From a virus (Duplodnaviria > Caudoviricetes), in the IMG/VR virus record IMGVR_UViG_3300012943_000018, positions 1 to 41,018 of that record: DNA of 41,018 bases; one strand, given 5' to 3'. The notes under the pieces were generated by a model, which searched no databases, was not told where the DNA came from, and saw nothing but the letters and a program-made list of their open reading frames with translations. Shown piece by piece: positions 2,525-41,018 of this stretch. The position numbers were made by a program, and so were the translations under genes. Positions within the stretch are counted from its first letter, which is position 1. Each line of letters begins with the position of its first letter.

Positions 2525-2527
2525 GCT

Positions 2528-3794: not shown

Positions 3795-3804
3795 TCACCT
3801 GCCT

Positions 3805-6967: not shown

Positions 6968-7423
6968 GCTCGCTTATAGAACGCTTCTGTATTCGGTTCC
7001 TTCCCGTATACCAATACGACGGAGGGAAAAGGCGCTGATCCTTTGTCCGAGAATCGAACGCGCCCCTGAAAGAATCGGACCTGCGCTTTGCCATGAACGA
7101 AGTTGCAAAACCATCTCGTCTCGACTCTCGCCGGCACAAGCAGAATGGAGAATGCCCCCCCCCTGTGATTCTTCATATGCCTTTTTTGCGAACTCGGCGC
7201 AGAGAGAATACGGAGGGTTGCAGAACGTCCATTTACCTTTAGGCCACGGCTTCTCCAGACCATTCATCTCCTTCGTATAGAACTTCTTCACCAGCGCATT
7301 TTCAGGAGTTGCAGCAGCATCAAGAGAAAAACGGAACTCTTTATTTAGAGCATCAAAAAGCCATTTCGGAGTATGCCACTCGTCGCTATTGTGCGAGAAC
7401 ATTGCTTTCTTTTCTTTTTTCAT
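6964..7423 (-). pseudogene. Phage Dam-family N6-adenine DNA methyltransferase, frameshifted at a G9 tract (7155-7163)
   Basis: DEWHTP, LDAAA and FCNPPYS lie in one frame; LLVPARVETRWF, GRVRF and APFPS lie in another; a G8 tract gives an intact 152-aa protein. Confidence 0.85.
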
Positions 7424-7971
7424 ACCTTCGTCAGCTTCATGTATACCTCCATCGCCTTCCGCGCGCCGTTGAGCGCGCGGTGCATCTTCGGCTCCGGCTC
7501 GATGCCGAGGTACGCGCAGACGGTCTTGAGCGAGTATCCGTTCACCTTCGCTTTCGGTATCTTGAACCACGCCATGCTCATCACGCAGATGCGATGGTAG
7601 TGGAACGGGTCCGCCATGTTCGTCTTCCGATACGCTTCCTCCATGAAGGACCAGTCGAACGTCACGTTGTACGCGAGGAATGATGCGCCCTCGCACGCCT
7701 CCGCGAGCTGCGCCAGGGCATCGCGCAAGCTGATGGCGTGCTTCCACTCCTTCTCGTTGTAGCCGTTCAGCTCGAGCGCCTTTGGGTCGGCCGCCTCGAT
7801 GTTCGTCGGCTTGATCTTCGCCTCGAACTCCCGGAGCGTATTCTTCTCCACGTCGTACACGATGACGCCTATCTCGAGGATCTCGTGCCTGTTCGGGGAA
7901 AGGCCGCTCGTCTCGAGGTCGACGAAGGCGATCTTCTTCGGCTGGTAGCTGGTCGGCGGGACGATTCTCAT
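7420..7971 (-). CDS. DEDDh 3'-5' exonuclease (DnaQ-like)
   Basis: FVDLETSG, AYNVTFDWSF and HRALNGA motifs. Confidence 0.9.
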   Translation of the reverse strand: MRIVPPTSYQPKKIAFVDLETSGLSPNRHEILEIGVIVYDVEKNTLREFEAKIKPTNIEAADPKALELNGYNEKEWKHAISLRDALAQLAEACEGASFLAYNVTFDWSFMEEAYRKTNMADPFHYHRICVMSMAWFKIPKAKVNGYSLKTVCAYLGIEPEPKMHRALNGARKAMEVYMKLTKV

Positions 7972-9668
7972 GGGATAAGGAAGGGCGATGCCTCGACTGT
8001 GCCGGCTCCGACGACCACGAGCTGACGCGTGGCGAGGAGCTGGATGTACTTGTCGCGAGTCGAGCGCTGGTAGTTCGTGGCCTCGGTAATCTCATCGCGG
8101 GAGAGCGGGCGGCCGGCATCGAGAAGCACGCGCAGGACCGCCGCCTCACCGCCGGGGAGAGTAGAGAGATGGTGGTTCGCGAGCTCGGCCGGGTCCGTCG
8201 GCATGGTCTGGTAGTCGTTTCCGAGCGCGGCGATGCCGGCTTCGGTCGCCTTCACTCGATCGCTGGCGAGCTCGACGAATCCCCTTCCTGTGAGGAGCTG
8301 AACGTACTTGTCGCGGGTCGAGCGCTTGTAGCCGGTCTGCACGGTGAGGTGCTGGCGCGTCATGCCTTCATCGAGGCTCGCGGCCGCCTTGAGGATGAGG
8401 AGCTCGCCTTTCGATGCGGCGCTCGTATCCGTGACCACGAGAGGAGCCGGAGTATGGGCGGGGCGCGCTGCGACTATAGGGACCATCTTCTGCTTCGGAG
8501 CGACGAGCTTCGTCTTGAGGCGTATAGGCCCTCCTGCCGGTTGCTTGAGGCCCTTCACCGCCATCTGGCCGTCATGGAGTATCTGCAAAAGCGAGAAAGC
8601 GTAGCTCTTCCATTCCTCGAGAGCGTTGCCGGCGCTCTTCTCGAGCTCTTCCTGAAGCTGTTTGCGGTACGGCTCGAGCATGACGAGAAGCTCGCGCTCG
8701 GTCGGCGGCTCTTTCACCTTCTCGATCTTGGTCTCGGTGCGGACCGGAGGACCGGCCTTGAGCTGCGCCTTCAGGTTGCGGATCTCTGTCTTGAACTCGG
8801 CGATAGTGCGCGCCTCTTTCTCCGCCTCTTCCGGGATATCCTTGAGGCCGGCGAGGATGCTCTTCACCTTCGCCGATGGCGGCGCGATCTTGATGGAGCG
8901 GCCGGTCCCACGCTTCGGCGGCGGGATGCTGACGGCCCCGATCTGCGTCTTCACGACCTCGTGCGATAGCGCGGGGCCGAACGCATAGAACTCGCCCGGC
9001 TCGAGGTTGCGGAGCGAGAGGACCTCTTCCTTCGTGTTGAACCCGAGCTCTTCTGCGGAACGCTTGCGGTCGATATCAAGGGACGCGCGGCCGATGAGCT
9101 TGTTATTGCATTCGGCAACCACGTCCTTCGAGAGCTTCGAGGGACGCTGGGTAGCAGGGATGAGGCAGTAGCCGCGCTTACGGCCGAGGCTCGCCATGTC
9201 GATGACGCTCGTGAGCGCGATGCTCTCGCCCTGGCCCTTCTCCGGAGCGAACTTGTGAGCCTCGTCGAGGATGATGAAGCAGTCGGTCCATAGCTCCTTC
9301 GGCATATTCACGAGCGCCTCCATGAAGTTCTTCACGAAGGCGTGGCGCTCGCTTCCGAGCTCGTAGATGTCGATGATAGCGTTCGCCTTCGTCTCGAGGA
9401 GCTTGCGCGCGAGGAGCGCGGCGGTGCGCGGCGACGCGACCGCATCGCCTCCTTCCTTCGCGATGTACACGAAGTCGTAGCCGGAGCGCATATTTCCGAA
9501 CTCTCCCTCCGGGTCGAGAATGATGATCTGCTTCTTGCCGAATGACTGCTCGATGAAACGGCGGAGCGTATAGGACTTCCCGCCGCCCGAGTTCGCTTGC
9601 ACGAGCATACGGCTCTCGATAGCCTTGTCGAGATCGAGCTGGACACCTGTGCCGAGGTTTATTTTCAT
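7968..9668 (-). CDS. HerA/DUF87-like P-loop ATPase with C-terminal winged-helix repeats
   Basis: ANSGGGKS, ILDPEGEF, ILDEAHKFAPE, GRKRG and ATQRP; duplicated YKRSTRDKYVQLL / YQRSTRDKYIQLL segments. Confidence 0.85.
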   Translation of the reverse strand: MKINLGTGVQLDLDKAIESRMLVQANSGGGKSYTLRRFIEQSFGKKQIIILDPEGEFGNMRSGYDFVYIAKEGGDAVASPRTAALLARKLLETKANAIIDIYELGSERHAFVKNFMEALVNMPKELWTDCFIILDEAHKFAPEKGQGESIALTSVIDMASLGRKRGYCLIPATQRPSKLSKDVVAECNNKLIGRASLDIDRKRSAEELGFNTKEEVLSLRNLEPGEFYAFGPALSHEVVKTQIGAVSIPPPKRGTGRSIKIAPPSAKVKSILAGLKDIPEEAEKEARTIAEFKTEIRNLKAQLKAGPPVRTETKIEKVKEPPTERELLVMLEPYRKQLQEELEKSAGNALEEWKSYAFSLLQILHDGQMAVKGLKQPAGGPIRLKTKLVAPKQKMVPIVAARPAHTPAPLVVTDTSAASKGELLILKAAASLDEGMTRQHLTVQTGYKRSTRDKYVQLLTGRGFVELASDRVKATEAGIAALGNDYQTMPTDPAELANHHLSTLPGGEAAVLRVLLDAGRPLSRDEITEATNYQRSTRDKYIQLLATRQLVVVGAGTVEASPFLIP

Positions 9669-10366
9669 AGAGGGTTGAAGGTTGCTACTACGGCGTTGAA
9701 CGCGTTCGGGTCGAAGGCGCGCTCGAGATCGATGCGCTTCAGGCCCTCATCGTAGAAGTACGGATACATTGCGAGCCCTTCCATGATGGAACGCTTGAAT
9801 CCCTCGAGGTCGCCGAGATGCCACGGGGTATGGAGAGAGAGATGGATGGTCGGCTGGAACGTCTCGAGCGTGAGCGCGCTTCCCTTGAAGATATCCTTCT
9901 CGCCGCCCTCTATGTCGATCTTGATGAAGGACGGCTGGATGTCCATGACGACCGCCTGGAACGCGGCAGCGGCTATCTTGCGGTCCCCAGGGCGGCCCCA
10001 CAGCGATGAGCTCATCGAGTCGCCGTAGCCGGTGCGCGGTCCGAACGGTATCCCCTTCCAGTCGTTCGCGACGGCTATCTGGTACGGGATGATGTTCTCC
10101 CTGCGGTTCAGCTCGATGTTCTTCACGAGCGAGGCGAAGGCCACAGGGTCAGGCTCGAAGGCGAATATCTCCTTGCATCGCGATGCCGCATAGAGCGCGG
10201 TCGGGCCGATCCATGCGCCGATGTCGAGCATCCGGCCCTCCTTCTTGAGGAAGGCGTCGAAGATGCGGAACGTGGAAGGCTCCCACGTGCCGTTCGCAAA
10301 GCCGGGCCAGAACCAGTCGTGTCCCTCGGCTACTTCGTATATGTCGTTCTCGCGGTTTATTTGCAT
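9665..10366 (-). CDS. FkbM-family SAM-dependent methyltransferase
   Basis: LDIGAWIG, AFEPDP and IKIDIEGGE; likely start MQINREND in cctATG context. Confidence 0.9.
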   Translation of the reverse strand: MQINRENDIYEVAEGHDWFWPGFANGTWEPSTFRIFDAFLKKEGRMLDIGAWIGPTALYAASRCKEIFAFEPDPVAFASLVKNIELNRRENIIPYQIAVANDWKGIPFGPRTGYGDSMSSSLWGRPGDRKIAAAAFQAVVMDIQPSFIKIDIEGGEKDIFKGSALTLETFQPTIHLSLHTPWHLGDLEGFKRSIMEGLAMYPYFYDEGLKRIDLERAFDPNAFNAVVATFNPL

Positions 10367-10369
10367 AGG

Positions 10370-10422
10370 TTCATAGAGGGATTTCCTCATCAGGAAGCCG
10401 GACGTATCCGGCTCCCTATGAA
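10370..10422 (-). other. Predicted three-way-junction RNA structure directly upstream of the FkbM start
   Basis: TTCAT..AGGGA/TCCCT-ATGAA closes the hairpins TTCCT-catc-AGGAA and GCCGGA-cgta-TCCGGC (plus-strand spelling). Confidence 0.5.
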
Positions 10423-10431
10423 GAGGCGAGC

Positions 10432-10539
10432 TTACTCGCCGGCTTCTGCTGGGGCTTCTTCAGCGCCGTCGGCTGCGGCAGACTCTTCAGCCTCCTCGCC
10501 TTCAGCACCTTCCACCTTCTCTTCTTCTTGTTCTCCCAT
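10432..10539 (-). CDS. 35-aa hyper-acidic peptide (not in the ORF track)
   Basis: MGEQEEEKVEGAEGEEAEESAAADGAEEAPAEAGE; fills the gap co-oriented with its neighbours. Confidence 0.65.
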   Translation of the reverse strand: MGEQEEEKVEGAEGEEAEESAAADGAEEAPAEAGE

Positions 10540-10613
10540 CGTAAGGAATCGTTTAGCTAATCATGCGCCCAATAAGAAGGGGAAACGGTCTCCCCTCCCT
10601 ATGGTCTCACGAA

Positions 10614-10829
10614 CTAGCGTACTTTCTTCTTGAGCTCGGCAACGCGCTTTTCAGCGGCGGCAAGCTCTCGTGCTGCCTTGCGCTCTTCGTAGAGCGTTTT
10701 CACGGCCGCCTGCACAGAGGGAAGGTCATAGTCAGCGACGAGCTTCCGGACTGCGGGGAGTACGGCACGGATGCGTGCGCGATGCTCCTCGAGCGCTGAC
10801 TTTTTCGCTACCTTGTTCTTGATCTTCAT
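10614..10829 (-). CDS. Small basic helical hypothetical protein
   Basis: 71-aa ORF in operon context with cctATG start. Confidence 0.7.
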   Translation of the reverse strand: MKIKNKVAKKSALEEHRARIRAVLPAVRKLVADYDLPSVQAAVKTLYEERKAARELAAAEKRVAELKKKVR

Positions 10830-10832
10830 AGG

Positions 10833-11762
10833 CTAGCGTCCGCGTCCGAGGCGGCGAGGGCCGGCGGCCGGCGTCTCACCGCGAAACGGGAGGTCGTCGT
10901 CGCTGATCTCCTCGTCCTTGCCGGGGATGGCGTTGAACTCGGCATCGGCGCGCGCCTTCTCCGCGCTCATGCCGCGGCGCTGGCGGATGACCTCGTGCAT
11001 CTCCTTGATGAAGTCGCGGACCAGGCCGGCTTCCTCATCGGTGATAGGACGGACCTTCTCGAAGGTCATCTGGTTCCAGTTGATCGTGCCCGACTCCTTG
11101 TACTCGGAATCGAAGCGCGTCACGAAGGCGTTCACGCCAGGCTGCGTCTTGCGGACGTACGTCATATAGGCGTACATCGACGTGCCGCGCAGGTTCATCT
11201 GGTAGAACTCGCCCTCGTAGAGCACGTACACGAGGCGGTTGTCCTCGAGGTCGGACTTCGGCTTTCCGGCCTTCGTCACGCCCGGATACTTCGGCTTGAG
11301 CTGCGCCGGCGTGCCCTCGTCGACCTGCGCTCCCGCGCAGAAGAGCTTCACGACCTCGTTATCGTCATCGTAGACGGTCGAGCTCGTGTAGGTCTCGGTA
11401 TCCTTGTCGAAATACTTGAGCTGCTTGCGCTGGAAGGCGATGACCGCCTCGAAGCTCTCGCCGAGCTCGGTGCGCTCCCATACCTTCTTCGTGCCGGTCT
11501 TCTTGCCGGTCTTCTCGTCGATCACGTCCTCCTCCTCGTCGGTCTCCTTCTCGAGGTAGAACGTACCGGCTTCGGTGATGACCCGGATCTCCTTCTTGCC
11601 GGTCTTCGGATTCTTGAACGTCTCGGTGATGTCCTGGGACACGAGGCCGAGGCGGGGGAAGGAGACGGACGTGAAGCCCGGCTCCGTCGGGAACTGTTGC
11701 GCCAGCTCCGCGAGCGTCTCTTCGCTTGCGGACTTGACGATTGCGGTTTCTTTCTTTGCCAT
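10833..11762 (-). CDS. Putative single-stranded DNA-binding / recombination protein
   Basis: beta-rich core and acidic tail EISDDDLPF typical of phage SSBs; has its own promoter. Confidence 0.55.
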   Translation of the reverse strand: MAKKETAIVKSASEETLAELAQQFPTEPGFTSVSFPRLGLVSQDITETFKNPKTGKKEIRVITEAGTFYLEKETDEEEDVIDEKTGKKTGTKKVWERTELGESFEAVIAFQRKQLKYFDKDTETYTSSTVYDDDNEVVKLFCAGAQVDEGTPAQLKPKYPGVTKAGKPKSDLEDNRLVYVLYEGEFYQMNLRGTSMYAYMTYVRKTQPGVNAFVTRFDSEYKESGTINWNQMTFEKVRPITDEEAGLVRDFIKEMHEVIRQRRGMSAEKARADAEFNAIPGKDEEISDDDLPFRGETPAAGPRRLGRGR

Positions 11763-11813
11763 AGTTATCGAATAGTTATCGGTTATATTATCGTCATTTT
11801 CTTTCGAGCATGA

Positions 11814-11866
11814 CTTCCGTCATTATACTTCCGTCATCGGCCGCCCGCAAACCCTCCTGTGGATAT
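11814..11866 (-). promoter_or_regulatory. sigma70 promoter with two operators flanking the -10 box and a DnaA-box-like site
   Basis: TTGCGG (11845-11850), 17 nt, TATAAT (11822-11827); CTTCCGTCAT at 11814-11823 and 11828-11837; TGTGGATAT at 11858-11866. Confidence 0.7.
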
Positions 11867-12128
11867 CCGCCGAGATCTCCGCGAGCCGCTCCCGGTGCGC
11901 GATGAGCTCCGGGGATACGCAGGGCGGGTACGGCGTGAGCATGGCCAGAGCCGTAGCCACAAGGTCATCCGAGCGCTCGACCCCGGCGTATCCTTTCCAC
12001 TTTCCGAGGACCGGGAACACGTCGATATAGCCGTCCTCGCCGCGCACGCGGTACTTGATCGGCGAAAGGCGCAGGCAGATGAAGCCGGCCTCGTTGAACA
12101 TCTTCTTAGTATCGTCGCGGTCGTTCAT
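11823..12128 (-). CDS. Hypothetical protein
   Basis: ORF MNDRDDTKKMFNEAG... in operon context. Confidence 0.6.
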   Translation of the reverse strand: MNDRDDTKKMFNEAGFICLRLSPIKYRVRGEDGYIDVFPVLGKWKGYAGVERSDDLVATALAMLTPYPPCVSPELIAHRERLAEISADIHRRVCGRPMTEV

Positions 12129-12267
12129 GGGTGAGGTGATAGTAGTGGCACTTCGGGCATTGGTAGACGCGCAGGTAGCCTCGCTCATGCGCGCGGATGT
12201 TCCGGATGCGCTTCGCCTCCTTCACGGACTTGTACTGGTTCTTTCCGCTGAAGGGGCATTTCGTCAT
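12106..12267 (-). CDS. Small zinc-finger protein (53 aa, not in the ORF track)
   Basis: MTKCPFSGK...RVYQCPKCHYYHLT; ATGA coupling to the upstream gene. Confidence 0.7.
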   Translation of the reverse strand: MTKCPFSGKNQYKSVKEAKRIRNIRAHERGYLRVYQCPKCHYYHLTHERPRRY

Positions 12268-12569
12268 AGCTGTCCGTTGCGGTGAGCGTGAAGGCTCGAC
12301 ATCTTCGTGAGGAACTCCACGAAGAGCGCGCGCAGCATGACGCGTTGCTCCCGATGGTTCACGTAAAGCTGGCCGAGATGGACCCTAGACTCCGGCTTGC
12401 ACCAGCACAGGATGTCATCGGTATGCTCCGGCTCGTAGTGGATCTTCAGGAACTCGCGGTTGAACTCGACGATGAGCGCGGACTCCTCCGCATCCGGCTG
12501 ATGCACGATGAGCGGTTTCTCTTCCGGAGCGGCCGCCTCCTCCTTCTTCTTAGGCGTGCGCTTCGGCAT
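12264..12569 (-). CDS. Hypothetical protein with a His/Cys motif
   Basis: EH....CWCKP...VNH; operon context. Confidence 0.65.
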   Translation of the reverse strand: MPKRTPKKKEEAAAPEEKPLIVHQPDAEESALIVEFNREFLKIHYEPEHTDDILCWCKPESRVHLGQLYVNHREQRVMLRALFVEFLTKMSSLHAHRNGQL

Positions 12570-13140
12570 AGGCTTTCATCTCCTTTACGCGCTTCTCGAT
12601 GCGGACCCCGAAATCGAGGATGTCGCGCATCGTGCGCTTGGTATAGAACGTCTGCGGCACGCACGGCTCGACGAGCTGGATGGTGAAGTCGCCGCGCTCT
12701 TCGGTCGGAAGCCAATGGATGCCGCACTCGAACTCCTCCGGCCGGATCTTCTTCGTGAGCCAGATGAGGAGGAGGTACATCGTGAGCTGCCCGGTCTCGT
12801 CGGCGCGCTTCTGGTCCCATGCCTTCTTCCCGGTCTTGAGATCGAAGAGCTTGAAAAGCTCGAACGATACATCGTCCGGCACGCCGACCAGCTCGAGCTT
12901 CCCGAGCTTCGCCTTCATCTTGTACTGAAGGAGCCCGTGTCGCGGCAGATCCGGAAGGAATGCCGGGTCGTCCTGGAACTGCTGGTCGATCACGGAACCG
13001 AACTCGAGCTCGCGCGTCGACTGGCGCTTGCCGAGAATGTACGTCTCGAACCATTGCTCCGGGTCCCACTCGAAGGACGAGATACAGGACCAGGAGACCG
13101 GCTTCTTGAGCCACTCCTCTATTTCCTTTTGATACTTCAT
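12550..13140 (-). CDS. PD-(D/E)XK exonuclease-like protein
   Basis: SWSCISSF, GVPDD, DLKTGK and QLTMY motifs. Confidence 0.75.
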   Translation of the reverse strand: MKYQKEIEEWLKKPVSWSCISSFEWDPEQWFETYILGKRQSTRELEFGSVIDQQFQDDPAFLPDLPRHGLLQYKMKAKLGKLELVGVPDDVSFELFKLFDLKTGKKAWDQKRADETGQLTMYLLLIWLTKKIRPEEFECGIHWLPTEERGDFTIQLVEPCVPQTFYTKRTMRDILDFGVRIEKRVKEMKAYAEAHA

Positions 13141-13289
13141 ACAAGGGCTTTAAGGATCTCTCCGATCATATAGATGACGACGAAGACAGGCGCAGCGAAG
13201 ATCATCACGATCACGAATAGGGCGAACAGACCGAGGAGCGCGAGCGCTACGCAACCAACGCAGAGGAAGAAGAAGCTGACCTTATCCAT
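13137..13289 (-). CDS. Small membrane protein (50 aa, not in the ORF track)
   Basis: MDKVSFFFLCVGCVALALLGLFALFVIVMIFAAPVFVVIYMIGEILKALV; overlaps both neighbours. Confidence 0.65.
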   Translation of the reverse strand: MDKVSFFFLCVGCVALALLGLFALFVIVMIFAAPVFVVIYMIGEILKALV

Positions 13290-13599
13290 GAGCATCTTTC
13301 TTAGAGCGCGGCTTGAGGCCCGTCTTCTTCCGCATCGGCATCCGGAGCTGGACCTTCTTCACCGGGAACGGCTCGCCGGCGCGCTTGCACGCCTTCACGA
13401 ACTCACGCTCGGCGTAGTTAGGACGGCCAATGGTCAGGATAATCTCGATGGTGGCATCCTTCGGCCCTCCGCTGTGCTTGTAGTTCTTCCTCGTCGCCCG
13501 CACGATATGGTTCGGCGCGAGGTACTTGGTCGCCTTCACCGCGTCGGTGCGGAGGAGGACTTCTATCGTATTGCTGATTGCGTTCATCGGTGTAGTCAT
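13282..13599 (-). CDS. Basic hypothetical protein
   Basis: 105-aa ORF with genome-typical codons. Confidence 0.7.
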   Translation of the reverse strand: MTTPMNAISNTIEVLLRTDAVKATKYLAPNHIVRATRKNYKHSGGPKDATIEIILTIGRPNYAEREFVKACKRAGEPFPVKKVQLRMPMRKKTGLKPRSKKDAHG

Positions 13600-13614
13600 G
13601 CCCTAAAGATAGGA

Positions 13615-13704
13615 TATTGAATACCGATGGTCAATATAGTTTTCCCCATACGGAAATACTCCCCGGAAAGGGGAGTATACTTGAGGCAGAAAGGAGGGTC
13701 CGTC
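13615..13704 (+). promoter_or_regulatory. Promoter and strong RBS of the counter-oriented mini-cassette
   Basis: Inverted repeat ATACTCCCC-ggaaa-GGGGAGTAT (13656-13678) overlaps TATACT (13676-13681); SD AGAAAGGAGGG at 13688-13698. Confidence 0.6.
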
Positions 13705-13884
13705 ATGCGTCAATGCCTTCGTTGCAGTACGCCTACGGGAAACGAGCCCGAATGCACCTGCGGTTCCAGGACGGTCGAGATCCAGCCGACGCTCCCGTTG
13801 CGTCTCCCGATGCAACGGCGCGATCAGCGGGACCTCTTCGAGGACCGGGTGGAACGGTTCATCCAGACAGACGAAAGGAGGTGA
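13705..13884 (+). CDS. 59-aa zinc-ribbon-like protein, counter-oriented
   Basis: MRQCLRC...ECTCGS; strong SD, own promoter and terminator. Confidence 0.7.
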   Translation: MRQCLRCSTPTGNEPECTCGSRTVEIQPTLPLRLPMQRRDQRDLFEDRVERFIQTDERR

Positions 13885-13889
13885 TCCAG
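13873..13889 (+). promoter_or_regulatory. 17-nt perfect complement of the 16S rRNA 3' end, overlapping the stop codon
   Basis: GAAAGGAGGTGATCCAG is the reverse complement of CTGGATCACCTCCTTTC. Confidence 0.85.
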
Positions 13890-13894
13890 TATCT

Positions 13895-13925
13895 CCCGCG
13901 CCGGACTTCGGCGCGGGTCTTTTTT
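13895..13925 (+). terminator. Intrinsic terminator
   Basis: CCCGCGCCG-gactt-CGGCGCGGG followed by TCTTTTTT. Confidence 0.85.
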
Positions 13926-14088
13926 AGTCGACGAACGTCGCGTGGCAATGCGGACACCCGGACGGCGTGAACCAGTTCAGGCGCTTGATGATGCGTCCGC
14001 AGGCGCGGACGTACCCGTTGCCGGGGCATCGCTCGAGCTTCCAGCCAGCGGCTATCTCCTCTTCGATGAGTACCGGGTCCTCGGTCAT
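13924..14088 (-). CDS. Small Cys-rich protein (54 aa, not in the ORF track)
   Basis: MTEDPVLIEEEIAAGWKLERCPG...AC...GCPHCHATFVD; ATGA coupling. Confidence 0.65.
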   Translation of the reverse strand: MTEDPVLIEEEIAAGWKLERCPGNGYVRACGRIIKRLNWFTPSGCPHCHATFVD

Positions 14089-14339
14089 ACGAGCACGAGC
14101 TTATAGCCGACGCCGCGCACCGTCTCGATGGCCTGCGCCTTTGGGAGCTTGCTGCGGATGTTCCGGATATGGACCGCCGCAAGGTTGCCGGCGTTCCAGT
14201 TGTTCGATACCTGCCCGTCCTTGCGGATGGTGTCGAGGATAGCGCCGATGTCGTCGGCCGTGACCGGTTCAGGCTTCGCTTTTACGAGGGCGTTGTATAT
14301 CTCCTGCTCGGCGCGCGTGTACTTGATAGGAGCGGCCAT
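14085..14339 (-). CDS. Stand-alone OmpR/PhoB-type winged-helix DNA-binding protein
   Basis: VHIRNIRSKL...IETVRGVGYKL signature of Trans_reg_C; no receiver domain. Confidence 0.85.
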   Translation of the reverse strand: MAAPIKYTRAEQEIYNALVKAKPEPVTADDIGAILDTIRKDGQVSNNWNAGNLAAVHIRNIRSKLPKAQAIETVRGVGYKLVLV

Positions 14340-14340
14340 A

Positions 14341-14790
14341 CTACGCGTCGGTGTTAGTACGAACTCCGTCATCGAGCGCCTCCCAGTCGATGCCGAACTT
14401 CTCGCACACGAAGATGAGCTTCTCCTTCCCGTAATGCTCATACGGTACGGCCTCGAGGCCATCGATGAGATCCTGATCCGCGGTGAGCCAGATCCATGCC
14501 TCCATGTGGTTGATGGATCGGTTCGCGGAAAGCCCGCGGCAGTCGTTCGCCTTCTCCCATGCGAAGGGCATGTAGTCCTTGATGGCGAGTGTGATGTTCT
14601 CGAGCGTTACCGGCTTATAGGTATCGGCCCACTGTTCCTCCGTAACCTCCGGCTTGAGAAATGCTTTCGCATTCTCGAAGGTGAGGAACTCGACGAGATC
14701 TCCTCGAGCGGCTCCCGAGAAATCCCGGTAGTCTTCCGCGAGATACTCGATGCGCTCTGCGATCTCTTCCTGTGTTCGTAATTCAGTCAT
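14341..14790 (-). CDS. Hypothetical protein
   Basis: 149-aa ORF in operon context. Confidence 0.75.
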   Translation of the reverse strand: MTELRTQEEIAERIEYLAEDYRDFSGAARGDLVEFLTFENAKAFLKPEVTEEQWADTYKPVTLENITLAIKDYMPFAWEKANDCRGLSANRSINHMEAWIWLTADQDLIDGLEAVPYEHYGKEKLIFVCEKFGIDWEALDDGVRTNTDA

Positions 14791-14792
14791 GG

Positions 14793-15038
14793 TTACTTCT
14801 CCTTAGGTGTAATGGTCCACTCGAACGAAGGGTTCGTGTCCTTCCAGACACAGGAGAACTCGTGGCTTCCGTCTCCGTTCGGATAGGCGCAGCCCGCGCC
14901 ACTCGCGCAATACTGGCTCGTATCCTTTTCGTACCCGCCCTTGATCATCTCGATCATCTGCTCGAGCACAGGGATGAACTCGTGTATCCCTTCAGTCGAC
15001 GATGCCTCGAGCTTCAGCTCCATTCGGTTGCCGGTCAT
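14793..15038 (-). CDS. Hypothetical protein
   Basis: 81-aa ORF with ATGA coupling. Confidence 0.65.
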   Translation of the reverse strand: MTGNRMELKLEASSTEGIHEFIPVLEQMIEMIKGGYEKDTSQYCASGAGCAYPNGDGSHEFSCVWKDTNPSFEWTITPKEK

Positions 15039-15391
15039 ACGAGGAAGCGGTCAGCATCCTTCACGGGAAGGAGGCCGGTGATCTTGTACTTGAGAGTCGA
15101 TGCCTCCCACGGGAGAGGATCTTTCTCAGTAGTCTCACGGAAATAAATCGAGAGGCCCTTGAGGTCGAGCAAGCTCTCGCGCAGCTGAAGGACTTCTTCG
15201 CGCGTGTGGTACGTCGTCCCGTTGAGGGTTCCGATACCGACGAGCGCGAGGCGGCCGTTCATGAACATCGAGCTATACCCGAGGAGCACACCGTTCTCGA
15301 GAACGTCGAGCTCCGTGAAGTCCTGTCCTTTGTCCTCGAGCTCGATCGTGAGGACGACCTTCTTTCCTTTGCGGAAGTCTTGAATAGCCAT
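15035..15391 (-). CDS. Hypothetical protein
   Basis: 118-aa ORF in operon context. Confidence 0.7.
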   Translation of the reverse strand: MAIQDFRKGKKVVLTIELEDKGQDFTELDVLENGVLLGYSSMFMNGRLALVGIGTLNGTTYHTREEVLQLRESLLDLKGLSIYFRETTEKDPLPWEASTLKYKITGLLPVKDADRFLV

Positions 15392-15392
15392 A

Positions 15393-15584
15393 CTAGAAGA
15401 GCTCCGGGTTTACGGCATGGAGAAGGCCGGGAAGAACGAAGTAATGAAATGCGATAGCTGCGATGGCGAGGATCGCAATGATAGCGATGCGACGATTCTC
15501 GCGGCGGCGAGCCTGACCCGCGCGGAACTTCGTGAGGTCCGGAGCGAGGTACTTGCGATCGAATGCGGTGATGGAATGAGTCAT
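15393..15584 (-). CDS. Small membrane-anchored protein
   Basis: Basic patch followed by IAIIAILAIAAIAFHYFVL; first gene after a promoter. Confidence 0.7.
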   Translation of the reverse strand: MTHSITAFDRKYLAPDLTKFRAGQARRRENRRIAIIAILAIAAIAFHYFVLPGLLHAVNPELF

Positions 15585-15637
15585 GGTTTGCGGTTTAAGT
15601 TATCGGTTTTTTATCGGTTCGTATTTCTACATTCTTC

Positions 15638-15693
15638 ATAATACTCGGATCTATTCTTCCGTCAAATGCAGAAATGACGGAAGTGTGGATAAC
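15638..15693 (-). promoter_or_regulatory. sigma70 promoter with an inverted operator pair and a perfect DnaA box
   Basis: TTGACG (15660-15665), 16 nt, TATTAT (15638-15643); CTTCCGTCA at 15656-15664; ATGACGGAAG at 15674-15683; TGTGGATAA at 15684-15692. Confidence 0.75.
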
Positions 15694-16140
15694 TCAAAAC
15701 GGCAGATCCTCCGGAGCGATAGCCATGAGGACCGCTTCATCTTCCTCCATCGTGAAGTCGCCGGTATCGCGCAGCTGCTTAGCTTTATCATCGGCCATCC
15801 AGTGCGCGGTATTCTCCTTCTCCGTAACCCACTCGAGATTCGAGATGTGGTTGTTCCTCTTGTCCCGATCGATATGGTTGACGTAAGGCTTGCCGTCCGG
15901 GTTCTCGAGGAACGCGATCGCAACGAGCTGATGCACGAAGAAGCGCTTGCGGTCGCCGGCGTGCTTGAGATGCACGTGGAGATAGCCTCGGTACATCGGC
16001 GGCGTCTGCATGACGCGCTCCGGGAGCGGGCGCGTGCGGCCCCGGAACCAATGGATATGCCGCGCGCAGCTCTTGACCCTTCCCCGGTCGGATACCTGAT
16101 ACTTGCCCTCGTAGCCAGGGATGTCGCGCCACTCCTCCAT
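15694..16140 (-). CDS. NUMOD4-HNH homing endonuclease
   Basis: EEWRDIPGYEGKYQVSDRGRVKS; VHQLVAIAF; VNHIDRDKRNNHISNLEWVT. Confidence 0.9.
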   Translation of the reverse strand: MEEWRDIPGYEGKYQVSDRGRVKSCARHIHWFRGRTRPLPERVMQTPPMYRGYLHVHLKHAGDRKRFFVHQLVAIAFLENPDGKPYVNHIDRDKRNNHISNLEWVTEKENTAHWMADDKAKQLRDTGDFTMEEDEAVLMAIAPEDLPF

Positions 16141-16142
16141 AG

Positions 16143-16601
16143 CTACAGCATGACGAGCTTGTACTTCGCCGTCGGGTTGAACCCGGTCGCGCGCAGGCTC
16201 TCGATATCGAACGGGAGCCCCTTCGCCTTGAAGCGCCGGCGCAGGGCGGAAAGGTGCGAGCATATGAGGTTGTCGGAAACGTATGAAAGGGAGACGAGCG
16301 CCTTGAGCTCGTTCCGGGTCGCGCCTTCTGGCCGCTGGATGAGCGAGAATATCCTCCATTGCGTGACCGAGAGCTCCTTCGCGACGTGCGGATACTTCTC
16401 CATGACGCCGGGGATCTCGGTCCATTCCTCCTGTAAGCGCTCGCGGCGCGTCTCGCTCGGGCGCTTCACCGGCTTCGTGTACGGGACCGCCGTGCGGAAG
16501 ACGATGAACTCCGGAAGCGGCACGAACGATGCGATGAGGTCGTACCGGAGCTGCTTGGGCAACTGGTCGATGAGCTCGCGCGTTTTTACCTGGACCAGCA
16601 T
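16143..16601 (-). CDS. Protein with a C-terminal OmpR-like winged helix
   Basis: LSVTQWRIFSLI...ICSHLSALRRRF...IESLRATG. Confidence 0.55.
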   Translation of the reverse strand: MLVQVKTRELIDQLPKQLRYDLIASFVPLPEFIVFRTAVPYTKPVKRPSETRRERLQEEWTEIPGVMEKYPHVAKELSVTQWRIFSLIQRPEGATRNELKALVSLSYVSDNLICSHLSALRRRFKAKGLPFDIESLRATGFNPTAKYKLVML

Positions 16602-16603
16602 AC

Positions 16604-18766
16604 CTACGATTCCATGTTAGGGAGATCCTCCGCAGCAAACTCCTCGCTGTTCAGGTGATCGAGGACGCCCTGGTGCTCCGGGAACCAGCGCGTACGCTGG
16701 AAGCCGTCTATGGTGCGACGGTCCTTCTTGAGCTTGAGTTTGTTCTTCAGGATGTCGGCTATCGCCATCTCCTCGAACTTCTTCATCGAGCCGAACTGCG
16801 AGAGCGCCTCCTGATACACCTGCTGGATCGTGATGCCGTCGACCTGCTTCCGGTTGTTGAACGGGTCGTTGTAGTACCACTCCGTTATGCGGTCCTCGTT
16901 CGGGTCGGAGATGCGGCGCGCCTCCTGCTGCTTCGCGGTCTCCTCCTCCGGGAACTCGTGGACCGTCTCCTTGTCGACCACAAGGCGATGGTATGCCTCC
17001 GCGAAGAGCTGCTCGCGGTTCGCCTCGAGCCACTCGATGTCGGCCTGCTTGAATACGACCTTCACCGGGAGCCATCGGCGGTTTCCGGTCTCGTCCTTGA
17101 GGTACTCCTCCTGGTTCGTCGTCATCGCGAACGCGCAGCGGCGCGGATGGTCGGTCGAAATACGCGCGTACGGCTCGCGGAACTTATCGACGAGCATGGT
17201 GATGATCGCTTTCATCTTCTTCACTTCGGTACGCGAGAGTGTCTCGCCCTCGGAGAACTCGACGATGAACTTGCCCTGGAACTGCATGAAGAAATCCTTC
17301 GAGTCCATACTCATCGTGGTCTCGACGTGCGCGTTCTTCCCGTTCGGGAGCTCGCCGAGGACATTGAGCGAGGTCGACTTCTTCGCGCCCTGCGGTCCCT
17401 CGAGCACGAGCACGTAGTCGAACTTCGATCCCGGCAGGAGGATGCGCTTCACGACGCCCTTGAGCCAGTTCGATGCGACCGCGCGATGGTACTCGTCGTC
17501 CGGAACGCCGTACGTCTTCTCGAGCCAATGATCGAGGCGCGCCTCGCCGTCCCATTCTATGCCCCGGATGAAGTCGAGCGCCGAGTCGATGACGTTCTCC
17601 TTCGCGACAAGCATGATGGCGTCGTAGACCATATCCTTCCCGACCTTGCGGAAGAAGTCGTACTTGATCGAGATGCCGGTCTGGATGATGACGACATCGT
17701 TATCCTCGAACGAGCGCCAGGCGTCGCCCTCGAGCACCTCGTACGCGTTCTGGAAGGTATCGAAGCGGAACGCGCCGGCGAACTCCTCGTCGCCGCGCAG
17801 GATGCGCGCGATGTTCTCGGTATTCTGCGTGACGAGCTTCTGCCCTTGCGCGCCTATCGTGTATAGAAAGTCGATCCCGGTCTCCTCCTTGATGCGCTCG
17901 TCCTGCGTCTGGTACACCTCGTCGCACGCCTTCACCGCAGCGGTGATGCTGCGGAGCCGGTAGTCCGCGCGCGTCTGCGTCTTCTCCCGGCTTCCGAGCG
18001 GGCTCGCGACCCATATGCGCTCCATCTGCGCCGCGTCCTTCCGGGACCAGAACGCGAGGTGCGCGAGCAAGGACGCGTCCGCGCGGCTCTTGTCGCCCTC
18101 CTTCGCCGACGGGTCCCCGTCGTAGAGCTTCCGGATATCCGGCCCGTTCGCAGCCCCGAACATACGGTCGAGGAGCTGCTGGTCCGTGAAGATGCTCTCC
18201 GTAGCCGGGGCGTCGAGCAGGCCCGGCGCGACATCTGCTTTCGCCCAGGGATATCCGATACCCTCGAGGAGCGCGATCGCTTCCTTCGGAGGAATCGTCC
18301 TGATGGCCTTCGGTTTCCCGTGAAACGAGACCTCGCTGAACGTGAAATACCGGCCGTCCGTGTACGCCTCGAAGGGACTGTGCCGGTTCGCCTCGAGCTT
18401 GAGCGCCTCCGTGAGATGGAGATAGAGATGGAGTCCGGTCCCTGATGGGCTGATTTCCGTATAGGTATCCGCCTCCTTTATGAGCTTCTCGATAGCCTTC
18501 TTGTGCTCGCCGACCACCTTTCCCTCCTCGAGAACGTGGTCGATGTCGATACCGAGCAGGGTCCGGTCCGGGGTGAAGACGACGCCTATGCCCGAAAAGA
18601 ACTCGGATGCGGCTTTAGCCTTCTCATACGTGGTCCAGGTCTCGGGGTCGGTGGAGCTGGCCATCTTCCCGGTGACGGAATACGGGATCTTCGTCGTCTT
18701 CGCGCCGCGCTTCTCGGCGTGCCAGACGACCCAGCGCTTCTCCTTGAAGATAGGGTGGTCGTTCAT
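16604..18766 (-). CDS. NrS-1-like primase/polymerase fused to a VirE/VapE-type helicase
   Basis: RWVVW, GIDIDH and EISPSGTGLH; helix-bundle DKSRADASLLAHLAFW; LEGPQGAKKST and YLKDETGNRRW; likely start MNDHP overlapping the HNH stop. Confidence 0.9.
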   Translation of the reverse strand: MNDHPIFKEKRWVVWHAEKRGAKTTKIPYSVTGKMASSTDPETWTTYEKAKAASEFFSGIGVVFTPDRTLLGIDIDHVLEEGKVVGEHKKAIEKLIKEADTYTEISPSGTGLHLYLHLTEALKLEANRHSPFEAYTDGRYFTFSEVSFHGKPKAIRTIPPKEAIALLEGIGYPWAKADVAPGLLDAPATESIFTDQQLLDRMFGAANGPDIRKLYDGDPSAKEGDKSRADASLLAHLAFWSRKDAAQMERIWVASPLGSREKTQTRADYRLRSITAAVKACDEVYQTQDERIKEETGIDFLYTIGAQGQKLVTQNTENIARILRGDEEFAGAFRFDTFQNAYEVLEGDAWRSFEDNDVVIIQTGISIKYDFFRKVGKDMVYDAIMLVAKENVIDSALDFIRGIEWDGEARLDHWLEKTYGVPDDEYHRAVASNWLKGVVKRILLPGSKFDYVLVLEGPQGAKKSTSLNVLGELPNGKNAHVETTMSMDSKDFFMQFQGKFIVEFSEGETLSRTEVKKMKAIITMLVDKFREPYARISTDHPRRCAFAMTTNQEEYLKDETGNRRWLPVKVVFKQADIEWLEANREQLFAEAYHRLVVDKETVHEFPEEETAKQQEARRISDPNEDRITEWYYNDPFNNRKQVDGITIQQVYQEALSQFGSMKKFEEMAIADILKNKLKLKKDRRTIDGFQRTRWFPEHQGVLDHLNSEEFAAEDLPNMES

Positions 18767-19348: not shown

Positions 19349-19830
19349 AGTATACCTCCCGTGAAGGGGAAGTGAAAAGGGAAAATGACGGAAGTGTGGA
19401 TAACCCCTTCCGTCATCTGCATACCTCCCGGAATGACGGAAGCATTTGCCGGCCCGTCCGGAAAAGCCTAATGACGGAAGAGTGTGGTGTAATGCGGTCC
19501 GAAGGGTCCGGAGGGGTCCGCTTGCATACCTCGGGGGCTTTTTTTGGGAGGTATGCAAGGGAGGTGTACTAGGGTTTTCATGGCCTATTTACTACCTTTA
19601 GTATACCTAGTATACCTAGTATACCTAAATCCCTATAAGATACTGAAAAGGTCTAGGAAAGGGAGGGGAGGGGAGGCTGGTGGAGGGGCTGGGGATATAT
19701 ATAGGCGGTAGGTATGCAAGGCATACTAGCCCCACCCCTCTTTGTGGTTTTCACCGCACAGGCAAGCCGTGGAATCGCTTGCATACCTCCCTGGCCGGAG
19801 GTATGCAAGATGCATACCTCGGAGGCTGTT
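19349..19830. promoter_or_regulatory. Probable replication origin / major control region
   Basis: About 500 bp with no credible ORF; four ATGACGGAAG sites, a DnaA box at 19395-19403, seven TGCATACCT repeats in both orientations, (TAGTATACC)x3 in an AT-rich patch; lies upstream of the primase operon. Confidence 0.7.
19599..19625. repeat. 9-bp tandem repeat (TAGTATACC)x3
   Basis: Read directly from the sequence. Confidence 0.9.
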
Positions 19831-20707: not shown

Positions 20708-20813
20708 GATGTTATCGGTTATTGCTTGTGTACCTATAGTATAAATGACGGAAGATATACCGCAACGGGTTATTCACACTTCCGTCATATCTCTTCCGTG
20801 ATATAGTTTTCCT
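20708..20813. promoter_or_regulatory. Divergent early/late promoter region with operators and a DnaA box
   Basis: Minus strand: TTGCGG (20760-20765), 16 nt, TATACT (20738-20743). Plus strand: TATAGT at 20802-20807. Operators at 20745-20754 and 20779-20788, variant at 20793-20802; TTATTCACA at 20770-20778. Confidence 0.75.
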
Positions 20814-26823: not shown

Positions 26824-28569
<1,746 letters not shown>

Positions 28570-37911: not shown

Positions 37912-40900
37912 ATGGGACTCCTGAATGCGGCCATCGAGGAACAGAAGAAGGCCGGGCTCCTAAGCAAGAGCGCGGGCGATTCTCCTGTGCCCGAGAAGCG
38001 CATCGTGCCGGCTACCATCCAGGCTCCTAAGCAGAACGCCGTCCAGAAGGCAGGATCGAAGCTCTACGGCCTCCTCCCGAACTTCGTGAAGGAGGGCGTC
38101 GATATCGCGCATGACGCGCTCTTCGGCAACGTGAAGGACCGCGCCGTTCTTCAGGATATGGAGAACAAGGGCCAGCCTATCGACTTCGCGACGCGCCTCA
38201 AGGTGGAGGGTTTCCTCCCGTTCCTCGGCAAGCCGGATGAGGAGGTCATCAGCGAGAACGTCCAGCATCTCAAGGATAAGGGCGTCGCCCCAGACCGCGC
38301 GGAGGAGCTCGCGTTCTACGACCATTTCAAGGGCCGCTCCATGCCGGGCCTCCCGGATGAGGCGAAGACGCGCCTCGAGGAGCTTCAGCCGACGAAGGCA
38401 GAATCCCGCGTGCTCGGCATCGCGCGCCTCGGGAACGTCCTCGGCAGCGCGGGCGATGTCGCCGGTGTTCTTCCTGTGGGTTCCATTGCGAAGGTGGGCG
38501 AGAGCCTGACGCCGCGCATCATCATGAGGGCCACAGAAGAGGGAGCCGCGCAGGTGCTTACGAAGGCCGGCGTCGACGAGGCTATCGCGACGCGCTTCGC
38601 TGCGGATGTCGGTCGCGCGAACAGCGCGGAGAAGGCGCAGGTCGTCCTCGACAATATCGTGAAGGCACAGAACGAGGTGAAGGCCGCGACTCCGGAAGCC
38701 ATTCGTTTCACGCGAAACAGCCAGAAGCTCGCGGACCAGATCGTGCAGAAGTTCCCGGATCTCTCGCGCACGTACGCCGATAACCTCGCGGAGAGCGCGG
38801 TCTCCCTCGTGAAAGAGGGCGGCAAGGCCCCGACGGATGCGCTCCGTCTCGTGAACGAGCAAATCTTCAGGCTCCCAGCGAAGGCGGCGAAAACGGTCGC
38901 GAAGGAAGCGCCTGTGCTCGCGAAGACGATAGAGCAAGTCCCGCTCGAGAATCGTATCGGACTCATGGACAGTCACCCGTCCTATACGCCGCGCATGAAC
39001 GCGCTCATCAAGGACGCCCAGGATAAGGGCGAGATGTTCCCATTCTCGAAGTTCACTCCCGAGGAGCAGAAGATCGTCGATGCCGGTTTCAAGGATATGC
39101 TCGACAAGACGCCGGTGAAGGTCCCGAAGGACTTCAAGCCGTACGAGGCGACCGTCACGACCGAGACCGTGGACCCGAAGAAGCTCGCGGACCCGGCGTA
39201 TTTCAAGCAGGTGTACGAGTCGACGTTCGCGGTCGGCGGCGACAAGGGGCTCTATAAGGTCATGACGAAGGAGCTCGTCCCGAAAGGGAAGGAAGCATCC
39301 GGCTACCTGGCCGAGCTGTATAAAAAGGCGAAGGCGACCGTCGCCGAGACCGCGCCTGTGGTCGCTAAAGCCCCAGAGAATCCCGGAATATCAACCAAAG
39401 GAATACAAGAGCTACAACGAGAAGGTAAACCACCAAGTCCGGAACGCGTCGTGGAAGCATTTGATAATAAGTATACCGCAGGCGACGGCGTTCCCCAGAC
39501 CCTCGATGCGGCTATTGAGGATACCGCCATCACCACCCAGGAGCCGACCCTACAGAAGCGCGTGGCGAAGACGCTCAAGGACGGCCTCACCTCGACCATC
39601 GAATATCTTCAGGATGCCGACAAGCGCATCGCGAACCTTCAGCGCGGGAAGATAGTCACGGACGAGTCCGACATCTACCAGAAGCTCACGCTCATGCCGG
39701 GGCGTCTCGGCGATATCGTCGACCGCGGTCGCGGCGTCATCGAGGGCGTATTCAAGGATATGGGCAAGTACGCGAAGGAAGCGAAGATCGAGCTGCCGGA
39801 ACTCCGCAAGGAAGTGAACGACTATCTGTGGACTAAGCACGCCCCGGAGCGCAACGCGGCGCTCGGCGATAAGGCGGCCGGTATCAGCACGGAGGACGCG
39901 GCGAAGCGCCTCAAGGAGATCGAGGCGTCTCCGCATTTCGCGAGGGTCCAGGAGTTCGCGAACAAGCTCGCGGACCTGAACCGCCAGACGCTCGATATGC
40001 TCCATGACTCGGGCGTGGTCAGCGACGAGCTCTACGATACGCTCCGCACGAAGTACAAGAACCATATCCCGCTGAACCGCCTCTTCGAGGATACGAACGA
40101 CGTGGGCGAGATCCTATCCGGACGCGGGCTCGACGTTCGCTCGAGCGGCATCAAGCGCGCCGTAGGTTCCGAGCGCGAGGTCGCCGACATCGTGGAGAAC
40201 ATCCTCGTGAACTACGAGCAGGCGGCCATCCGCAGCGAGAAGAACATCGTCGACCAGGCGACGCTCAAGTTCGTGCGCGACAACCCGGACCCGAAGCTCT
40301 TCGAGATCCGCAAGCCGAAAGCCATCGGCGAAGACTTCGAGGGCAAGCCGCTTATGGAGAAGACGCAGGACCCGCAGATCCTCCAGATGTTCGAGAACGG
40401 CAAGCCTGTGTGGATCGAGATAAAGGACCCGCAGCTCGCCATCGCCATGCGCGGCGTCGGGCGCGAGAAGCTCGGAGCCATCATGAATGCCGTCGCGTCC
40501 TTCACGCGCCTCTACTCGGGGCTCGCGACGCGCTTCAACCCGGAGTTCGCCTTCCCGAACAAGCTCCGCGACCTTCAGGAGGTCATGGTCTACCTGTCCG
40601 CACAGAAGGACGTGAAGGCTAAGGGGGCGCTCAAGGCGGCCCTGCGCGACCCGCAGAGCCTCAAGGCCGTCACGGACGGTCTTCGGGGCGTAGACAGCGA
40701 AGGAGCCCGCCTGTACGCCGAAATGAAGCGCTACGGCGGTACTACGGGCGGCATGGGCCTCTCTACCCGCAAGCGCGTCCAGCTCGATATCCGCGACCTC
40801 GAGAAGCTCGCGACCTCGAAGCCGCGCCAGTTCGCCGAGAAACTCGTCGGATACGTCGACGGTTGGAATACCATCTTCGAGGACTCCTCGCGCCTCTCCG

Positions 40901-41018
40901 TGTACCGCACAGCGATCGAGCAGGGCCTCTCTAAGGACCGCGCGGCCGCGCTCGCGAAGGAGGCGTCGGTGAACTTCAACCGCATGGGCAAAGGCGGCCC
41001 GGTCATCAACGGCCTCTA
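37912..41018 (+). CDS. N-terminal part of the giant internal virion/ejection protein (about 1418 aa, ending at 1273 across the junction)
   Basis: ATG at 37912 (MGLLNAAIEEQKK...); the frame appears open to the window end and joins the ORF ending at 1273; absent from the ORF track because it has no stop in the window. Confidence 0.85.
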   Translation, partial: MGLLNAAIEEQKKAGLLSKSAGDSPVPEKRIVPATIQAPKQNAVQKAGSKLYGLLPNFVKEGVDIAHDALFGNVKDRAVLQDMENKGQPIDFATRLKVEGFLPFLGKPDEEVISENVQHLKDKGVAPDRAEELAFYDHFKGRSMPGLPDEAKTRLEELQPTKAESRVLGIARLGNVLGSAGDVAGVLPVGSIAKVGESLTPRIIMRATEEGAAQVLTKAGVDEAIATRFAADVGRANSAEKAQVVLDNIVKAQNEVKAATPEAIRFTRNSQKLADQIVQKFPDLSRTYADNLAESAVSLVKEGGKAPTDALRLVNEQIFRLPAKAAKTVAKEAPVLAKTIEQVPLENRIGLMDSHPSYTPRMNALIKDAQDKGEMFPFSKFTPEEQKIVDAGFKDMLDKTPVKVPKDFKPYEATVTTETVDPKKLADPAYFKQVYESTFAVGGDKGLYKVMTKELVPKGKEASGYLAELYKKAKATVAETAPVVAKAPENPGISTKGIQELQREGKPPSPERVVEAFDNKYTAGDGVPQTLDAAIEDTAITTQEPTLQKRVAKTLKDGLTSTIEYLQDADKRIANLQRGKIVTDESDIYQKLTLMPGRLGDIVDRGRGVIEGVFKDMGKYAKEAKIELPELRKEVNDYLWTKHAPERNAALGDKAAGISTEDAAKRLKEIEASPHFARVQEFANKLADLNRQTLDMLHDSGVVSDELYDTLRTKYKNHIPLNRLFEDTNDVGEILSGRGLDVRSSGIKRAVGSEREVADIVENILVNYEQAAIRSEKNIVDQATLKFVRDNPDPKLFEIRKPKAIGEDFEGKPLMEKTQDPQILQMFENGKPVWIEIKDPQLAIAMRGVGREKLGAIMNAVASFTRLYSGLATRFNPEFAFPNKLRDLQEVMVYLSAQKDVKAKGALKAALRDPQSLKAVTDGLRGVDSEGARLYAEMKRYGGTTGGMGLSTRKRVQLDIRDLEKLATSKPRQFAEKLVGYVDGWNTIFEDSSRLSVYRTAIEQGLSKDRAAALAKEASVNFNRMGKGGPVINGL
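39365..39460 (-). CDS. Nested antisense 31-aa single-transmembrane peptide
   Basis: MLPRRVPDLVVYLLVVALVFLWLIFRDSLGL; TATACT (39470-39475) 9 nt upstream; local drop in GC within the host gene. Confidence 0.6.
   Translation of the reverse strand: MLPRRVPDLVVYLLVVALVFLWLIFRDSLGL
40896..41018. repeat. Terminal direct repeat (copy of 1-123)
   Basis: Exact match to 1-123. Confidence 0.95.

Follow-up and report, generated by a model that had tools for sequence, protein, structure and literature searches.

Evidence for a conserved antisense gene encoding a predicted membrane micro-protein within the giant LPD38 gene of a phage

Comparison with related phages makes us nearly certain that the giant LPD38 gene of a tailed phage carries, on its opposite strand, a genuine and conserved gene for a predicted membrane micro-protein. 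The first-pass annotation of this DNA (41,018 nt, hereafter the window) had proposed such an overprinted antisense gene, and the proposal is strongly supported by the relatives, by a null test and by selection at codon positions.

The window comprises the whole circular genome of the phage (40.9 kb, with a 123-nt terminal repeat). From 21880 onward, its plus strand encodes the small and large terminase subunits, the major head protein, tail fibres, two proteins of 583 and 458 aa (the gene for the latter at 36533) and, at 37912, the giant gene; the minus strand carries the replication genes, namely primase/helicase, helicase, exonuclease and methylases. Searches of this complete genome for a tyrosine integrase or a resolvase gave no match. 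The giant gene occupies 37912 to 41018 (+) and continues beyond the circular junction at 124 to 1273 (+). When read through the 123-nt terminal repeat it specifies 1418 aa, in agreement with the earlier statement that the sense frame stays open. A domain match places Pfam LPD38 (PF18857, E 4e-20) in the 3′ part, near the end of the protein, and the domain, the large size, the position at the end of the virion gene block and the fold matches in BFVD assign the product to the LPD38 large polyvalent proteins. The conserved domain begins near 39577 and spans residues about 556-1418; the linker just upstream of it is hypervariable among the 120 homologous proteins listed.

An alignment-based structure model of the 862 conserved residues of L079, the closest relative (pLDDT 79.9), matched viral large polyvalent proteins by fold in BFVD and no structure in the PDB. 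A PDB sequence search with the host protein returned nothing below E 0.05, and a single-sequence fold of the host domain (pLDDT 40.7) was too low in confidence for use. According to the accessible text of two sources, packaging and injection have been proposed for LPD proteins (PMC5512222), and gp47 of phi24B, which carries LPD38 and is found in virions, is proposed to be an ejection protein (10.64898/2026.04.10.717836). The giant gene resembles that of gp47 in having Pfam LPD38 and in lying at the end of the virion gene block; the giant gene has a nested gene, whereas the accessible descriptions of gp47 and LPD38 mention none (PMC5512222, 10.64898/2026.04.10.717836). From LPD38, the gene order and phi24B gp47, we infer that the giant gene product is likely an ejection protein; the first-pass designation was reasonable on these grounds, and we keep it at "likely" because no solved structure matches the fold of the protein.

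The micro-ORF runs on the minus strand from 39460 to 39365 and encodes 31 aa (MLPRRVPDLVVYLLVVALVFLWLIFRDSLGL-stop), with a single transmembrane helix predicted at residues 9-25. It lies wholly inside the giant gene, in the hypervariable linker about 40 codons 5′ of the conserved domain, and both frames are open. The hydrophobic core is 17 residues long (peak 17-residue Kyte-Doolittle mean 3.15), and the peptide has no cysteine. A −10-type box, GGTATACT (39470..39477, minus strand), which contains the hexamer TATACT, ends 9 nt before the ATG, and a near-leaderless transcript is predicted from it on the basis of the sequence and of motif enrichment. The ORF, the box and the core are thus all as first described. 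The described loss of C/G-ending codons was also borne out, in that 19/32 sense codons in the overlap end in A, as compared with a mean of 7% for the giant gene, and GC3 drops from about 0.85 to 0.33. Among 19 long ORFs of the window tested, the overlap is the strongest A-ending patch. The runner-up (14/32) is at 28372-28569, at the end of a collagen-repeat tail-fibre gene, where a 41-aa minus-strand ORF (28480→28355) is only moderately hydrophobic. We also considered a 98-aa minus-strand ORF at 39303-39599, which is in a different frame, has no Pfam or PHROG match, and was rejected. Because the middle base of each antisense codon complements the third base of a sense codon, the A-ending codons and the hydrophobic antisense peptide are one observation. 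The case for a gene therefore rests on comparison with relatives.

Scans of relatives yielded 172 loci. Once the window was added, 85 rows aligned with the start of the conserved domain at a cut-off of E 1e-20, and removal of 18 exact duplicates, 7 loci with <330 nt before the anchor and 3 near-duplicates left 57 loci, including the window. The anchor was the start of the conserved domain, and host-domain identity among family loci ranges from 34 to 81%. To be scored as a carrier, a locus had to contain an antisense ORF of 20-90 aa that began with ATG in the same frame, no more than 150 nt before the anchor, and whose hydropathy mean over 17 residues reached at least 2.0. The first-pass annotation had suggested aligning homologous genes in search of a conserved antisense ORF, and the alignment revealed a hydrophobic one in the same frame and at the same place in 38 of the 57 de-duplicated loci (window included). 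The other 77 bin-by-frame cells along the gene contained 0-6 loci each. When the sense linker was resampled with synonymous codons (200 times per locus), a null that does not model local mutational bias, 1.2 loci were expected, and none of the 200 resamplings of the window qualified. The pattern spans gene GC contents from 33% to 65%. The other 19 loci have no equivalent ORF, apart from a 20-mer in L115 that starts with TTG and is doubtful. When the distant LPD38 loci retrieved were searched with a profile of the micro-gene, none yielded a convincing copy.

Carriers are found throughout the host-domain tree, a quick and unrooted tree on which the carrier label needs 9 changes, at least 5 of them forced by well-supported (starred) branches. 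Although the tree is unrooted, this distribution fits an old gene that was lost repeatedly. Contigs from wastewater (three runs of one study) align at 80% or better over 39364-39523, have no cover in the 5′ flank bin 39252-39355 and contain joints at which as much as 1 kb of flank is passed over; as contigs, they are silent on RNA strand or level.

The 38 peptides are 22-73 aa in length, mostly with one helix and a few with two. N-terminal to the helix, 22 peptides carry a net positive and 6 a net negative charge; C-terminal to it, 23 are net negative and 4 net positive. This charge asymmetry around the helix leads to a predicted N-in/C-out topology. An HPE[RH] tail is common to 12 of the 38 members. 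The window copy lacks it and, like that of L079, stops just past the helix, so either the tail is inessential or the target differs. Several loci depart from the simple arrangement. In each of L096 and L084, one frame holds a tandem pair of antisense transmembrane ORFs (96 and 255 nt, and 102 and 213 nt, before the anchor, respectively), which look as if the nested gene had been duplicated or split, and the ORFs of L159, L003, L087, L092 and L119 resemble two-helix versions of the micro-protein. In genome G001, a free-standing 41-aa gene (L011:1865-1990, +) with a helix plus HPEIPE follows directly after the LPD38 gene, with a hairpin and T-run downstream, and the G001 linker has no nested ORF. 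This look-alike (E 0.003 among 46,008 ORFs) is one case and a weak one; it hints that the function of the micro-protein can also stand alone.

The substitution pattern argues strongly that selection acts on the antisense amino acids. DNA-only alignments were used for 7 of the 12 closest independent pairs, five being left out for poor or brief alignment of the micro-ORF. Pooled over the 7 pairs, the mismatches in the overlap numbered 94/139/88 at sense positions 1/2/3, as compared with 336/191/743 in the adjoining domain (Fisher p 2e-31). The wobble base of the antisense codons faces sense position 2, and it is to this position that the mismatch excess shifts in the overlap. Three of the pairs have a clear excess; the other four are nearly flat. 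Protein-guided counts by antisense position were 137/98/206 (10 of the 12 pairs); sense-protein-guided alignment gave flat counts of 126/145/132, which alone cannot separate antisense selection from a relaxed linker. The window and L079 differ at 12 of the 31 codons. The six changes in codons 2-11 all alter the peptide, whereas none of the six in codons 14-31 does. This contrast suggests that the two genes divide the overlap by segments.

The box upstream of the micro-ORF belongs to a layout used elsewhere in the genome, as had been claimed. The arrangement TATA[AC]T, 6-8 nt, ATG heads at least five other ORFs, at 3606, 19341, 21880 (terminase small subunit), 23704 and 28589, and 8 copies of the box motif with a spacer of 5-10 nt are present in the genome, where 50 mononucleotide shuffles gave 0.86 on average and never more than 2. 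The −10 box, which the first-pass annotation had proposed to look for in relatives, is indeed enriched there. A −10-like hexamer scoring at least 8 of 9 precedes the start by 4-11 nt in 18 of the 38 carriers but at only 3.5% of 1268 other antisense ATGs in the same genes, and one scoring at least 7 does so in 31/38 as against 14% of the control ATGs, with a small bias because the best-boxed ATG per locus was counted. The boxes of these 31 lie 6-11 nt before the ATG, and 18 of the 31 have a spacer of 7 nt, the spacing expected for leaderless mRNA. The window box reads K-Y-T in the sense frame; Tyr is retained by the majority at this linker site in a 65-sequence alignment and is among the 7 sense codons at the box site in 24/38 carriers. 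A sigma-70 scan revealed no full −35/−10 promoter at the micro-gene. Directly past the stop, at 39322..39366 (minus strand), a hairpin (−17.1 kcal/mol) followed by 5 T is a weak candidate for an intrinsic terminator. A hairpin/T-run past the stop is found in 11/38 carriers versus 16/190 control windows; the one in the window was not among the hits of a consensus terminator scan, and L079 lacks it.

Two further sequence patterns concern the −10-type boxes. At 19597-19625 on the minus strand, between the replication and packaging modules, three tandem 9-nt units containing GGTATACT lie upstream of an ATG and possibly represent an origin or a stacked promoter. The motif CTTCCGTCA(T) recurs near 11810-11830, 15650-15680, 19380-19400 and 20740-20790, in many cases next to −10 boxes and in some in inverted orientation, and may be the operator of a phage regulator.

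In two carriers the locus adjoins a tyrosine integrase and bacterial housekeeping genes on the same contig, and the nested ORF is intact. One of these contigs is labelled Patescibacteria. The other is in the bin of L159/G002, which is labelled Gammaproteobacteria, yet it is 1.2 Mb in size, and all 7 organism-named matches among the 120 best relatives of its UvrA are from Patescibacteria; L159/G002 is likely a Levybacteria-related member of that group. With the reservation that ORFs within one locus are not independent, an SD motif and a −10 box near the start were found at 2/56 and 14/56 host genes beside the integrated carriers, at 18/190 and 31/190 ORFs of carrier loci, and at 23/65 and 2/65 ORFs of non-carrier loci, respectively. 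These start-site patterns and labels suggest that the host of the window phage is likely a member of the Patescibacteria. A search for the window terminase in five MAGs gave no match. In the Patescibacteria contig of L179 (G003 contig 1-16700), a reduced prophage-like element consists of an integrase, an M23 peptidase, an LPD38 gene with an intact nested ORF and recombination genes, followed by host murD; none of its ORFs that were scanned matched a capsid or terminase. Among virus records, several of which are incomplete, a tyrosine integrase was present in 2/11 carriers and 1/6 non-carriers. Because integrases are rare in carriers and absent from the window genome, the micro-gene is not confined to temperate phages.

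Our leading hypothesis, which we rate a little short of even, is that the small membrane protein is a superinfection-exclusion factor that blocks DNA entry of related phages. We prefer it because a small membrane protein with its own host-type promoter, encoded against the virion genes at the ejection locus, has the profile of an injection-blocking factor. Early in infection or in a lysogen, host RNA polymerase would start at the −10 box and make a short mRNA, nearly leaderless, on the strand that carries the replication genes here and lies opposite the virion genes. The peptide would insert N-in/C-out, with most members exposing a proline- and acid-rich tail outside the membrane, and would obstruct, at its membrane step, the conduit through which related incoming phages eject their DNA, as is proposed for SieA of P22. 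Late in infection, the abundant and fully complementary sense mRNA would silence the micro-gene, so that the newly made ejection proteins would not be trapped. Nesting would cost no genome space and would make separation from the giant gene by recombination unlikely. Several observations count against this reading: the micro-gene is missing in 19/57 loci, integrases are rare in carriers, the window copy lacks the HPE[RH] tail, the peptides have no homology to named exclusion proteins, the codon-position pattern is nearly flat in four of the seven pairs, and codons 2-11 vary non-synonymously. The broader proposition, that a large clade of short-tailed phages, likely of Patescibacteria, encodes an exclusion factor backwards within the very ejection gene that it blocks, co-inherited with its target and silenced by the target's late mRNA, is doubtful when taken as a whole.

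Small exclusion proteins and embedded antisense genes are already known kinds. The sieA gene of P22 is a genomic neighbour of the ejection genes. Like SieA, the micro-protein is a phage membrane protein, in its case by prediction, the 17-residue hydropathy mean of at least 2.0 in all 38 peptides being the selection criterion. The accessible text of PMC10461980 proposes that SieA blocks the ejection-protein conduit of short-tailed phages and reports that SieA escape mutants map to ejection proteins; we liken the micro-protein to it by analogy. SieA proteins, as described there, have 162-164 aa, three predicted helices, the motif FnRYPnEAnnFNK, a canonical ribosome-binding site and a gene of their own (PMC10461980). 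The micro-family, unlike SieA, has 22-73 aa, one helix or in a few cases two, a near-leaderless start, an embedded antisense position in the putative target gene, no such motif and no homology, and membership in the SieA family is ruled out by size, helix count, the missing motif and the absence of a family match. No homology of the 38 peptides to SieA or to any named exclusion protein was found in the family libraries. T4 Imm, also a small membrane protein that blocks DNA entry, acts in a lytic phage, and thus its example fits carriers without an integrase. HK97 gp15 is described in the accessible text as a small membrane exclusion protein blocking DNA entry (PMC10461980). Unlike the micro-family, Imm and gp15 are products of free-standing genes of phages with other tail types and hosts, and neither gave a family match here.

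With nog1, asa, laoB, ano and aatS of E. coli and Asp of HIV-1, which are embedded antisense overlapping genes, the micro-gene shares an ORF that lies fully within an annotated gene on the opposite strand and that annotation has skipped (10.1101/2020.02.20.958058, accessible text). The evidence for those cases comes chiefly from expression and from the phenotypes of knock-outs in a single host (10.1101/2020.02.20.958058), whereas the micro-gene is known from sequence, is kept across a deep phage clade and has a substitution pattern handed to the antisense frame.

Several other explanations have to be weighed against exclusion. The ORF could be the shadow of a P/S/K/Q/E/T-rich linker with A-ending codons, with no second gene at all; such codons automatically yield hydrophobic antisense residues, and a local mutational bias falls outside the resampling null. 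This is hardly credible in view of the resampling itself (0/200 for the window, 1.2 loci expected of 57), the persistence of the pattern from 33% to 65% gene GC, and the −10 boxes, ATGs and wobble shift, which linker composition does not produce. An antisense promoter or RNA that damps late-gene expression, with an incidental peptide, would account for a conserved −10 box pointing into the 5′ part of the giant gene. A pure silencer of this kind, one of the first-pass suggestions, is very improbable, as it leaves the selection on the antisense amino acids unexplained, and the ATG and transmembrane helix kept in 38 loci, the recurring tail motif and the candidate terminator past the stop in the window genome argue against it as well. 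Type I toxins (Hok/Ibs/Fst-like) are of similar size, have a single hydrophobic helix and are made from mRNAs with a long structured 5′ UTR that hides the ribosome-binding site. The full complementarity of the sense mRNA would suit a type I-like toxin with this RNA as its antitoxin, but the micro-gene, with its −10 box 6-11 nt before the ATG in 31/38, is near-leaderless and so lacks a 5′ UTR that could mask its start; two copies integrated in chromosomes, in which the late mRNA should be off, are intact, no toxin family match or Rfam antitoxin was obtained, and the tails are mostly acidic (net negative in 23/38). The toxin suggested at first pass therefore deserves little credence.

Two alternatives accept a functional peptide with another target. 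It could be a lysis regulator (an antiholin, a lysis-inhibition sensor or a single-gene lysis helper) turned off by the complementary late mRNA. The small transmembrane protein and the early-strand orientation would suit an inhibitor, and nested lysis genes are known in phages, such as phiX174 E and Rz1, the latter with a lipobox cysteine. Those genes, however, lie on the strand of their host gene, within a lysis or morphogenesis gene, whereas the micro-gene is antisense and the window peptide is cysteine-free. Moreover, a separate holin-like ORF is present at 3606, and it and a likely lysin at 2528, both read from sequence, are about 2.4 kb away round the circle; a single holin match was obtained (1/38 members, E 0.026). 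We regard a lysis role as improbable. Alternatively, the gene may be real and its peptide may target membrane machinery of the host (type IV pilus, receptor, divisome, transporter or protease), removing a receptor or remodelling the host, with a linker that merely tolerates overprinting. Single-pass N-in/C-out micro-proteins commonly regulate membrane complexes, and the Atlas leads, though weak (scores no higher than 0.82), are generic small membrane proteins. Whether a locus has the gene also goes with its start-site signals, which probably reflect the host type, as seen in the SD and box counts of carrier and non-carrier loci. Against this, the fixed position in one gene over 34-81% divergence is explained no better than by history. 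We think that a host-machine target is rather unlikely.

Opposite-strand ORFs also occur beside the giant gene, and other window ORFs may bear on lysis. At 1253-1606 (minus strand), right past the 3′ end of the giant gene and overlapping its last codons, a second ORF begins with a signal-peptide-like sequence, and small membrane or secreted ORFs on the opposite strand follow the giant gene in L004, L009, L083, L092 and L117 as well. This possible moron slot is another exclusion candidate. Judging by their sequences, the product of 2528-3553 resembles a cysteine-peptidase-type lysin with a cell-wall-binding end, and that of 3606-3794 a two-helix holin of 62 aa; neither had a Pfam or PHROG match.

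Protein catalogues contain few copies of the micro-protein. A profile of 20 tailed members had 8 matches among 1.84 billion representative proteins, of which 7 were evident members and one a repeat artefact. The 6 catalogue members that were looked up and one further member come from contigs of 646-6319 nt. The micro-gene is thus likely called only where the giant gene is truncated and is usually missed by gene callers. Searches with all 38 peptides gave 12 weak families in Pfam (best E 0.0018, none common to more than 2 members), 3 unnamed single matches in PHROGs, 1 weak match in NCBIfam and none in PADLOC; Rfam contained no antitoxin RNA match, only one chance snoRNA match (E 0.85). A literature search, thin on subscription papers, turned up no account of the micro-gene family, nor of any LPD38 or ejection gene with an antisense gene inside it, and a term search of a preprint on Patescibacteria phages gave no match.

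Whether prokaryotes have fully embedded antisense genes is disputed, chiefly because evolutionary evidence is lacking. With its deep conservation, antisense substitution pattern and conserved promoter box, the micro-gene offers a test case for the origin, persistence and loss of overprinted genes, and it defines a family of membrane micro-proteins that gene callers almost never report. A-ending codon patches in the linkers of GC-rich phage genes provide a simple screen for similar genes. Should the micro-protein prove to be an exclusion factor, it would offer an entry point into the competition between phages in Patescibacteria, and its escape mutants would open a genetic route to the function of the LPD38 protein.
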